Source of the DNA: an uncultured Comamonadaceae bacterium
GTDB taxonomy: Bacteria > Pseudomonadota > Gammaproteobacteria > Burkholderiales > Burkholderiaceae_C
Direction: 5' to 3'
NCBI GenBank assembly: GCA_966692625.1
Contig: CBKZAG010000001.1
Coordinates: 21,228 to 85,227, forward strand
DNA: 64,000 bases
Translations under genes and position numbers: made by a program
In this document: piece by piece, positions 45,098-46,855 of the stretch
Numbering within the stretch: the stretch's first letter is position 1
How the letters are laid out: each line of letters opens with the position of its first letter
Notes under the pieces: model-generated
What the model was told of the DNA's origin: nothing
What the model saw: the letters and a program-made list of their open reading frames with translations, nothing else
Databases searched by the model: none

Positions 45098-46855
45098 TCA
45101 GCGGGCACCCAGGGTGCTGGCTGTGGCCTCACTCGAGATGGGTGTGTTCCACGAATGGACGAATTGCTCGAACTCTGCGGCGGTCATGGGTTTGCCAATC
45201 AGGTATCCCTGAATCATGTCACAGCCATGGCTGTGCAGGAACGACTGCTGCGCCTCGGTCTCGACGCCTTCGGCCAGAACTTCCATGCGCAGATGGTGTG
45301 CCATCGAGATGACGCTGAGCGCTATACCCGCCGAGCCACTGTCGTGGATGATGTCCCTGATGAAACACTTGTCGATCTTGAGTTTGCTGACGGGCAGCTG
45401 TTTCAGATAACCCAGGCTCGAAAAGCCGGTGCCGAAATCGTCGATAGAGAAGTGGATCCCGAGGTGGCGCAGTCCCTCCAGCTTTTCCAGCGTACCTTCG
45501 ACACGGTCCATCATCACGGACTCGGTCAGCTCCAACTCCAGGCGGCTGGCGGGAAGTCCGGTTCGGCCCAGCACGCCCTGCACCATTTCAACGAAGTTGG
45601 GCCGCTGGACTTGCACGCCGGAAACGTTCACCGCCACCGGGCAGTCAAGCAGCCCTTGTTCAACCCAGAGCCGGTGTTGTTCACATGCGTTTTCCAGCAC
45701 CCATTCACCAACGGGAACGATCATTCCCGTTTCTTCAGCCAGGGGAATGAATATGTCGGGGCTGACAAAGCCATGTGCGGGTATTTGCCAGCGCAGCAAA
45801 ACCTCCAGGCCGCAGATTCGTCTGGTCTGGAGATCGAGTTGTGGCTGAAAGCGCAAGGAAAGCTGCTCTCTCGTCAACGCCTGACGAAATGCTGTGCGCA
45901 GCGAGAAGAGGTCCCTGTCACCCGCATGCAACTCGTCCAGTTCAAAACAGCCGCGGCCTGCGTATTTGGCTTTCTTCAAGGCCGCCTCGGCCCGGCGCAA
46001 GCACATGTCGGCGTCCTCATGCCCTGGGGCAACGAGTACCGCACCGAGGCTGGCCTTGCAGTCCACCGCCTGTCCTTCGATCACCACAGACTCCTGCAGG
46101 GTCGTCAGGATGTTTGCGGCCAACTGCCTCAACGTCGGCATGTCGGCCGCCTGGCTCTTGAGCAGGGCGAAATTGTCGCCCCCGATGCGGCCAACCGTGT
46201 CCGAAACATCGGCGTACTGCAGGAGGCGGCGGCCTGTCTCCGTCAACACGAGGTCTCCAACCTTGTGTCCATACGCCTCGTTCACATCCCTGAAGTGGTC
46301 CAGGTTCACCACCAATACGGCAGCGGGGCGCTGAAGGTCCCGCCCGCGCTCAAGCGCCTCGCCAAACCGGTCAAGAAACAGTTTGCGGTTGGGCAACTGG
46401 GTCAGGCTGTCTTGCACGGCACTTTTCAGTTGGCGCCGCTCCAGCTGAACGCGATCAGTGACGTCGCGCAAAACGCCGAGGACGTGGGTAATGATGCCGT
46501 TGGCGTTTTGCACGGGAACGATATTCAGCTCGTTCCAGAAAAGCCGCCCATCCTTGCGGTAATTGCGTATCACCACCTTGCACGGCACGCCCTGCCGAAT
46601 GGCCTCACGCAATACGGTGCGCTCGGGCTGGTCGCGGTCGGCTTCCTGGAGCATGCGGCAGTTGCGGCCGAGAATTTCCTCGGCTTTGTACCCGGTCATC
46701 TGTTCGAAACCGGGGTTGACAAAAATGACGGGTTGATCTTTGGCCTGTGCGTCCACCACCACGACGCTGTCGCTGGCGGCCAGCAAGAACGAGCGCCCGA
46801 GGTCATGCCAGGGCAGGGGAGGTAGACCGCTCGGGTTGGATTGCGCGCTGCTCAT
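45098..46855 (-). CDS. LOV(PAS)-GGDEF(degenerate, GGDNF)-EAL(EVL) protein; predicted blue-light-regulated c-di-GMP phosphodiesterase
   Basis: ORF 45098..47371, trimmed to the ATG at 46855. The LOV signature [29 protein letters not shown]...[15 protein letters not shown] is present, with the Cys codon at 46658-46660. The GGDEF motif reads GGDNF (46169-46183). EAL-domain residues are present: EVL, NVS, ELTE, DDFGTG, KIDK, EGVE and QGY. Confidence 0.85.
   Translation of the reverse strand: [585 protein letters not shown]

Follow-up and report, generated by a model that had tools for sequence, protein, structure and literature searches.

Since 2022, the active-site glutamine of light-oxygen-voltage (LOV) photoreceptors has no longer been regarded as obligatory (PMC9098866). 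Replacement of this residue in YF1, PAL, and AsLOV2 showed that most residues, including Leu, retain light signaling (Dietler et al. 2022, PMC9098866), and about 350 natural receptors without it, termed LOV(deltaQ) and carrying "predominantly" Leu and Ile in its place, have been catalogued (PMC9098866). Such receptors are defined by the presence of at least eight of the nine residues corresponding to G59, N61, C62, R63, F64, L65, Q66, N94, and N104 of YtvA and by the lack of Gln at the position of YtvA residue 123 (Dietler et al. 2022, PMC9098866). Proteins that combine a LOV domain with GGDEF and EAL domains have been described before. The LOV(deltaQ)-GGDEF-EAL protein of Mesorhizobium loti (WP_140774521.1), which has Met at the Gln site, responds to blue light (PMC9098866), and SL2 of Synechococcus elongatus is a LOV-GGDEF-EAL protein and a blue-light-activated phosphodiesterase (review PMC8846402). 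Here, we describe a gene for a protein of this kind in a 64,000-nucleotide stretch of DNA (the window) from an uncultured Comamonadaceae bacterium (GenBank assembly GCA_966692625.1, contig CBKZAG010000001.1, positions 21,228 to 85,227).

The window protein joins two described kinds, the LOV(deltaQ) receptors and the LOV-GGDEF-EAL phosphodiesterases. It shares the domain order, the adduct-forming Cys, and the absence of Gln with the M. loti protein; however, the latter carries Met where the window protein has Leu, and the assay, for light-repressed cyclase activity, used its LOV-GGDEF part, whereas the cyclase site of the window protein is destroyed, leaving only the EAL domain able to be catalytic, and M68 and the pair R74/R79 are present besides. 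Leu, as found in the window protein, is the commonest replacement in the catalogue of Dietler et al. The likeness to SL2 lies in the same three-domain order, with hydrolysis of cyclic di-GMP (c-di-GMP) by the EAL domain placed under a photocycle of flavin mononucleotide (FMN) and Cys; SL2 differs in its LOV domain, which is canonical according to its description, the basis of this comparison. We consider it likely, judging from sequence and predicted structure, that the window protein is cytoplasmic, probably forms a dimer, and acts as a c-di-GMP phosphodiesterase under blue-light control, with LOV-GGDEF-EAL architecture and a LOV domain of the LOV(deltaQ) class. This class and architecture, like the proposed mechanism, are already in the literature, and current understanding is unchanged. 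The protein is of interest as a natural LOV domain that is maintained by selection without the "essential" Gln and is wired to a predicted pure phosphodiesterase output, which could make it a test case for water-mediated LOV signaling in a native enzyme. If the predictions hold, it could possibly serve as a compact (585-amino-acid [aa]), slow-cycling optogenetic tool for lowering c-di-GMP by light.

Domain architecture of the predicted protein

The gene starts with the ATG at 46855 and ends with the stop codon at 45098-45100 on the minus strand, and its 585 codons run without interruption. Pfam matches were obtained for PAS_9 (residues 30 to 134, 1.8e-23), GGDEF (residues 146 to 302, 3.2e-35), and EAL (residues 321 to 556, 1e-68). 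The AlphaFold2 model, built from an alignment of 58 sequences, has a mean predicted local distance difference test score (pLDDT) of 90 for the full-length protein and places, in order, an A'alpha helix (residues 16 to 26), the LOV core, a Jalpha-like helix (residues 133 to 147) that runs into the GGDEF domain, and the EAL domain. The best full-length matches of the model in Foldseek were DosP, PA0575, MorA, and RbdA, and the LOV-activated cyclase 8c05 was also found. A first-pass annotation of the window, made from its letters and open reading frames (ORFs), had read the protein as a LOV photosensor fused to a degenerate GGDEF domain and an intact EAL domain, and hidden Markov models (HMMs), alignments, and structure prediction bear this reading out. 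The codon positions that it gave for C66 and L129 are exact in the translation. The coordinates of the features are collected in Table 1.

Table 1. Coordinates of the LOV(deltaQ)-GGDEF-EAL gene, its predicted protein features, and the neighboring genes within the window
Feature	Position	Strand	Basis or remark
LOV(deltaQ)-GGDEF-EAL gene	45098..46855	minus	585 aa, complete; ORF and translation, Pfam, AlphaFold2
N-terminal A'alpha helix, residues 16-26	46778..46810	minus	Predicted helix; aligns with the N-terminal helix region of Pseudomonas short LOV proteins
LOV core, residues 27-134	46454..46777	minus	PAS_9, matches to solved LOV structures, MAFFT alignment
NCRMLQ motif	46646..46663	minus	C66 at 46658-46660; M68 at 46652-46654 replaces Phe
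R74 and R79	46619..46636	minus	Counterparts of PpSB1-LOV R61 and R66 at the FMN phosphate; ungapped alignment to PDB-verified PpSB1-LOV
L129 (codon TTG)	46469..46471	minus	Active-site Gln position, strand Ibeta; HMMER, MAFFT, and PpSB1-LOV alignments
Jalpha-like helical linker, residues 133-148	46412..46459	minus	Predicted helix 133-147; spacing in homologues
Degenerate GGDEF domain, residues 146-302	45950..46420	minus	Pfam; alignment to MorA and PA0575
N184	46304-46306	minus	Replaces metal-binding Asp; alignment and motif tally
DVSD, residues 216-219	46199-46210	minus	In place of the RxxD I-site; motif tally
GGDNF, residues 225-229	46169-46183	minus	Replaces GGDEF
EAL phosphodiesterase domain, residues 321-556	45188..45895	minus	Pfam; catalytic set, loop 6
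REC-histidine kinase	61284-62507	minus	Same run as the LOV gene
Putative CheW	60826-61287	minus	Called by eye from the translation
CheR with subthreshold TPR_2 match	59558-60898	minus	Same run
Second putative CheW	59016-59561	minus	Called by eye from the translation
Methyl-accepting chemotaxis protein (MCP)	57421-59151	minus	Same run
MCP	55683-57398	minus	Same run
CheA-CheW-REC	53531-55672	minus	Same run
CheB	52533-53534	minus	Same run
Hybrid kinase REC-PAS-PAS-GAF-kinase-REC	49243-52674	minus	Same run
Membrane histidine kinase	46872..49268	minus	HisKA and HATPase_c; upstream of the LOV gene
Extracytoplasmic function (ECF) sigma factor	44411-45061	minus	Directly downstream of the LOV gene
RskA-type anti-sigma factor	43589-44398	minus	Downstream of the LOV gene
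Ferritin-like/DUF4439 protein	42966-43586	plus	Divergent; beyond the anti-sigma gene

The LOV domain and its flavin pocket

Residues 1 to 153 matched 161 distinct LOV/PAS sequences in the PDB below 1e-3, with a Pseudomonas short LOV protein at the top (7r5n, 4.7e-39), followed after the short LOV proteins by YtvA, LOV histidine kinases, phototropin LOV1/2, and aureochromes. The LOV region was also matched by the NCBIfam model of the YtvA family at 4.5e-37, which is under the full-length cut-off of that model. Besides the PAS_9 match, the structure prediction supports the LOV assignment, since residues 21 to 140 have pLDDT values of 87 to 96 and show the order of strands and helices expected for a LOV domain. 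In a MAFFT alignment with YtvA (sequence identical to PDB 2mwg), AsLOV2, and four homologues, N65, C66, R67, L69, Q70, R83, N98, K101, G103, F106, W107, N108, G127, D131, and T133 were invariant. The segment corresponding to GxNCRFLQ reads G63-R-N65-C66-R67-M68-L69-Q70, so that the adduct Cys is present and Met in place of Phe, already noticed in the first pass, is the sole departure. The FWNELNI string of the window protein, which the first pass had linked with YtvA, does occur in the YtvA sequence. In the same alignment, the flavin-coordinating Asn pair N98/N108 and the phosphate-binding R67 and R83 are all present. The predicted flavin pocket is thus complete, comprising N65, C66, R67, Q70, R83, N98, and N108.

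The best LOV matches, PpSB1-LOV and other Pseudomonas short LOV proteins (3sw1, 5j3w, and 7r5n), share 43% identity with the window protein over 136 aligned positions, and they have in common with it the A'alpha and Jalpha helices and the cluster of four arginines at the FMN phosphate. However, the short LOV proteins lack an effector domain, and Gln is retained in them as Q116, whereas the window protein has Leu at this position and a Jalpha helix that continues into GGDEF-EAL.

Loss of the active-site glutamine

The active-site Gln expected of a LOV photosensor is absent. L129 aligns without gaps with Q123 of YtvA, Q513 of AsLOV2, and Q116 of PpSB1-LOV, whose sequence is identical to 29lw/3sw1 and whose alignment to the window protein is gap-free over about residues 18 to 141. 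A shift of register that would restore the Gln is ruled out, because the anchors G127, D131, and T133 are invariant in these ungapped alignments and no Gln occurs within eight residues of L129, the nearest being Q138 in the linker. The Gln-to-Leu change on the last LOV strand proposed at first therefore holds in pairwise HMMER, MAFFT, and PpSB1-LOV alignments. In the MAFFT alignment, the 82%-identical orthologue has Ser at this position, and YtvA and AsLOV2 have Gln. The domain belongs to LOV(deltaQ) as defined above, with eight of the nine diagnostic residues (G63, N65, C66, R67, L69, Q70, N98, and N108), M68 in place of the Phe, and L129 in place of the Gln.

Two further claims about L129 did not survive. 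Leu had been cast as a noncanonical relay residue; however, crystal structures of AsLOV2 Q513L in the dark and in the light show a static Leu side chain (PMC9098866). Leu is thus not a relay residue, being inert in the published structures, and water that enters transiently has been proposed as the relay of N5 protonation in the absence of Gln (PMC9098866). Nor is the feature as unusual as had been assumed, given the roughly 350 LOV(deltaQ) receptors published in 2022 and the presence of Leu in 8 of 59 Cys-containing LOV domains in full-length homologues (47 have Gln, and Ser, Val, Phe, and Met occur once each). Of 173 LOV-like domains from all retrieved proteins, Gln was found in 122 and Leu in 26, and both tallies are biased toward kin of a deltaQ query. 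The sample came in part from an exhaustive search of representatives that used the LOV domain as the query; giant multi-PAS proteins dominated its 150 best matches, which served as a biased sample for residue tallies only. When homologues were sought through a word index with no more than the LOV domain, the two matches returned were uninformative.

The Phe of NCRFLQ was examined in the same sampled LOV-like domains, of which 159 have Phe at this position, 6 have Met, 5 have Ile, and 4 have Leu. M68 pairs with L129 in the window protein, and L68 pairs with S129 in the orthologue. Across 166 domains, Phe and Gln occurred together in 116, Phe without Gln in 31, Gln without Phe in 6, and neither in 13 (Fisher odds ratio, 8.1; p = 5.5e-5). 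When duplicates within a protein were removed, the odds ratio was 6.3 (p = 1e-3); both statistics ignore phylogeny. The 12 flavin-pocket positions of AsLOV2 that have been listed in the literature as facing inward do not include F452, which suggests that the Phe position is second-shell.

An arginine cluster and a predicted slow photocycle

R67, R74, R79, and R83 of the window protein align with R54, R61, R66, and R70 of PpSB1-LOV. In PpSB1-LOV, R61 and R66 clamp the FMN phosphate together with two canonical arginines, and the R66I exchange makes dark recovery 100-fold faster, from 2471 to 23 min (PMC6047819). Losing the Gln amide slows recovery too (Q513M, PMC11151830). Arginines at both the R74 and R79 positions are rare, being found in 7 of the 166 sampled LOV-like domains. 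Because the Gln is absent and R74/R79 resemble those of PpSB1-LOV, a long-lived adduct and a slightly blue-shifted dark spectrum are predicted, and the domain would act as a sensitive, integrating light sensor.

Selection on the LOV domain and the case for a light-independent role

Two close relatives of the protein were found in metagenome assemblies, a one-residue variant (P0001) and the 82%-identical orthologue (P0002). The protein is absent from NCBI and occurs only in SRA-derived assemblies, and a scan of the genome collection revealed no GTDB species representative with a copy of the LOV gene at >40% identity. Nei-Gojobori estimates of the ratio of nonsynonymous to synonymous substitution rates (dN/dS) against the orthologue (contig L001) were 0.10 for the LOV domain, 0.04 for the linker, 0.065 for the GGDEF domain, and 0.047 for the EAL domain, figures that are only rough because dS is near saturation (about 1.3 to 1.6). 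All domains, including the Gln-less LOV domain and the dead GGDEF domain, are nevertheless clearly under strong purifying selection, and a LOV value of about 0.10 against an orthologue of 82% identity indicates that this domain is not decaying. At position 129, the window protein and P0001 have Leu, and P0002 and a further homologue, P0121, have Ser; this variation fits the experimental tolerance of the site.

Several observations weigh against light regulation of the phosphodiesterase. Gln-to-Leu variants are often weakened in their response (PMC9098866), and the occurrence of Leu or Ser at 129 in close orthologues fits either tolerance or a lesser role of light signaling. In addition, M68 and R79 are uncommon among LOV domains, and the dN/dS values are rough.

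These points leave room for a protein that hydrolyzes c-di-GMP with little or no effect of light, in which a flavin-binding PAS domain serves as a redox sensor or a constitutive dimerization module and the Gln was lost under relaxed selection on photosignaling. Consistent with this, position 129 is variable, Gln-less variants are often weaker, LOV domains have been proposed to descend from redox-active flavoproteins, the LOV-like PAS domain of Pseudomonas aeruginosa RmcA is tied to redox and phenazine sensing, and the gene lies among chemosensory and two-component genes rather than light-related ones. However, the adduct Cys and all other photocycle-relevant residues are kept in the window protein and also in P0002 and P0121, which have Ser at 129; the LOV dN/dS is low; and Leu at the Gln site preserves the light response in three receptors (PMC9098866). 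We therefore regard a redox or dimerization role as unlikely.

The EAL domain as the predicted catalytic output

The complete set of EAL catalytic and metal-binding residues (E351, R355, N410, E442, E445, D472, D473, K493, E529, E532, and Q549) was found in the alignment, as the first-pass annotation had stated, and loop 6 is intact (DDFGTGFSS, with D473 followed by FGTGFSS). The catalytic and loop-6 columns are invariant across 58 homologues. The domain shares 45 to 47% identity with the active EAL domains of BifA, MucR, and MorA, and its model superposes on BifA and MucR with template modeling (TM) scores of 0.94 to 0.95 and root mean square deviations of 1.2 to 1.6 Å and on MorA with a TM score of about 0.90.

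The possibility that the protein is an inactive c-di-GMP receptor or scaffold was also considered, as LapD and FimX, in which both the GGDEF and the EAL domains are nonenzymatic, appear as weaker matches. This is very improbable, because no catalytic or loop-6 residue is missing or varies among the homologues and the top matches are the active phosphodiesterases PA0575, MorA, MucR, and BifA rather than LapD or FimX.

A degenerate GGDEF domain

The GGDEF motif reads GGDNF, and DVSD stands in the place of the I-site RxxD, both in agreement with the first-pass annotation. The degeneracy goes beyond that reading, since the segment corresponding to DxDxFK is NLDHFR, with N184 for the first Asp and R189 for the Lys. 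Thus, the GG(D/E)EF motif, the Asp and Lys of DxDxFK, and the inhibitory RxxD motif five residues ahead of the GG, all expected of an active cyclase, are missing, and by alignment the domain is without both active-site metal ligands and without an I-site. According to established GGDEF enzymology, as for PleD and WspR, such changes abolish cyclase activity, and the loss of that activity predicted at first is borne out by the alignment and HMM. Among 120 homologues, 87 have GGDEF, 100 have D..D..K, and 109 have RxxD, and the combined losses are unique to the window protein and its orthologue, which has GGDTF. The guanine-binding residues N192 and D201, both in nearly invariant columns, are retained, so that GTP binding is conceivable.

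It is hardly credible that the enzyme is bifunctional, with c-di-GMP synthesis preserved and light toggling it between cyclase and phosphodiesterase activities: intact GGDEF and RxxD motifs prevail among the homologues and N192 and D201 are kept, but the combination of N184, R189, and Asn for the GGDEF Glu is found among the 120 only here and, with GGDTF, in the orthologue.

Residues 140 to 570 are matched best, in both structure and sequence, by RbdA (PA0861), PA0575, MorA, and DosP, which are PAS-GGDEF-EAL phosphodiesterases with a regulatory GGDEF domain; for PA0575 and RbdA, structures of this domain with bound GTP are available. These four proteins differ from the window protein in having PAS rather than LOV sensors and GGDEF domains that are mostly intact where aligned (PA0575 and MorA).

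Linker and proposed mechanism

The DVT motif at the end of the LOV domain and the DxLT motif are spaced 15 aa apart in the window protein. Among the homologues P0001 to P0120, the spacing is likewise 15 aa in 96 proteins, whereas it is 22 aa in 13. The difference is exactly one heptad, which fits signal transmission through a coiled coil.

On the reading of the protein as a light-regulated phosphodiesterase, FMN would be bound and blue light would induce an adduct between C66 and the flavin C4a. N5 protonation would then be communicated to the beta-sheet through water, with no Gln side chain involved, in line with the proposal for AsLOV2 Q513L. The signal would pass along the Jalpha-like linker, a coiled coil constrained in length to heptad steps, and reach the GGDEF domain, which is catalytically dead and would serve as an adaptor and possibly as a GTP-binding module. 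The geometry of the EAL dimer would thereby be altered, changing the hydrolysis of c-di-GMP to pGpG. The sequence does not fix the sign of the response; by analogy with SL2, activation by light is more likely than repression.

Genomic surroundings

The LOV gene is the last gene of a minus-strand run of chemosensory and kinase genes, at the end of what is probably a Wsp-like operon. The stop codon of the upstream kinase gene lies 16 nt ahead of the LOV gene ATG, an identical 16-nt spacing is present on the P0002 contig, and the gene order from CheA to the LOV gene on the P0001 contig is identical to that in the window. Cotranscription of the upstream kinase and LOV genes is probable. More distant homologues in Burkholderiales (45 to 50% identity, with the domain order PAS-LOV-GGDEF-EAL-REC) are also found directly behind small kinase genes. 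No REC-GGDEF output of the WspR type was found in the cluster at 46872-62507. We take the cluster layout to be Wsp-like, with the place of WspR held by two kinases and the LOV phosphodiesterase.

A bolder proposal is that the Gln-less LOV domain is a stably maintained, lineage-specific adaptation, in which the exchange at 129 (to Leu or Ser) is linked with a second-shell exchange at 68 (to Met or Leu) and with the arginine cluster. The protein would then be a very slow, dose-integrating sensor and the dedicated c-di-GMP-degrading output of the Wsp-like operon, merging light and surface or chemical signals, and the Phe/Gln covariation would reflect a general compensatory rule for LOV(deltaQ) receptors. 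We think it quite unlikely that this proposal is right.

The ATG at 46855 is also where gene calling placed the start of the LOV gene on each of two independent metagenome contigs. A longer ORF from the GTG at 47371 (757 aa) was rejected, since it overlaps the upstream kinase gene (end at 46872) in another frame and is contradicted by the gene callers and by the orthologues, all of which begin at the ATG. A 612-aa ORF on the opposite strand (44987-46825) was taken to be a probable shadow ORF of the GC-rich gene.

The ORF starts of the two kinases upstream of the LOV gene are likely too far upstream, as gene calling on contig L002, which is near-identical, gave 1097 and 793 aa, compared with 1143 and 798 aa in the window. 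The L002 start of the 1097-aa kinase, the counterpart of that at 49243-52674, overlaps cheB by 4 nt.

A conserved link of the LOV gene to the genes for the ECF sigma factor and its anti-sigma partner downstream was rejected, because the orthologue contig has IS66-family genes in that place. Farther away, two minus-strand ORFs in 34577-36904 (415 and 357 aa) had no Pfam match at E <= 1e-3 and may be shadows of plus-strand ABC-transporter genes. The lack of a closer GTDB copy of the LOV gene and the product of the gene at 6479-7963 point to a divergent, uncultured source within Burkholderiales. The latter gene encodes a betaproteobacterial-type glutamate-cysteine ligase, GshA (TIGR02049), which is only about 60% identical to named Comamonadaceae/Sphaerotilaceae proteins.

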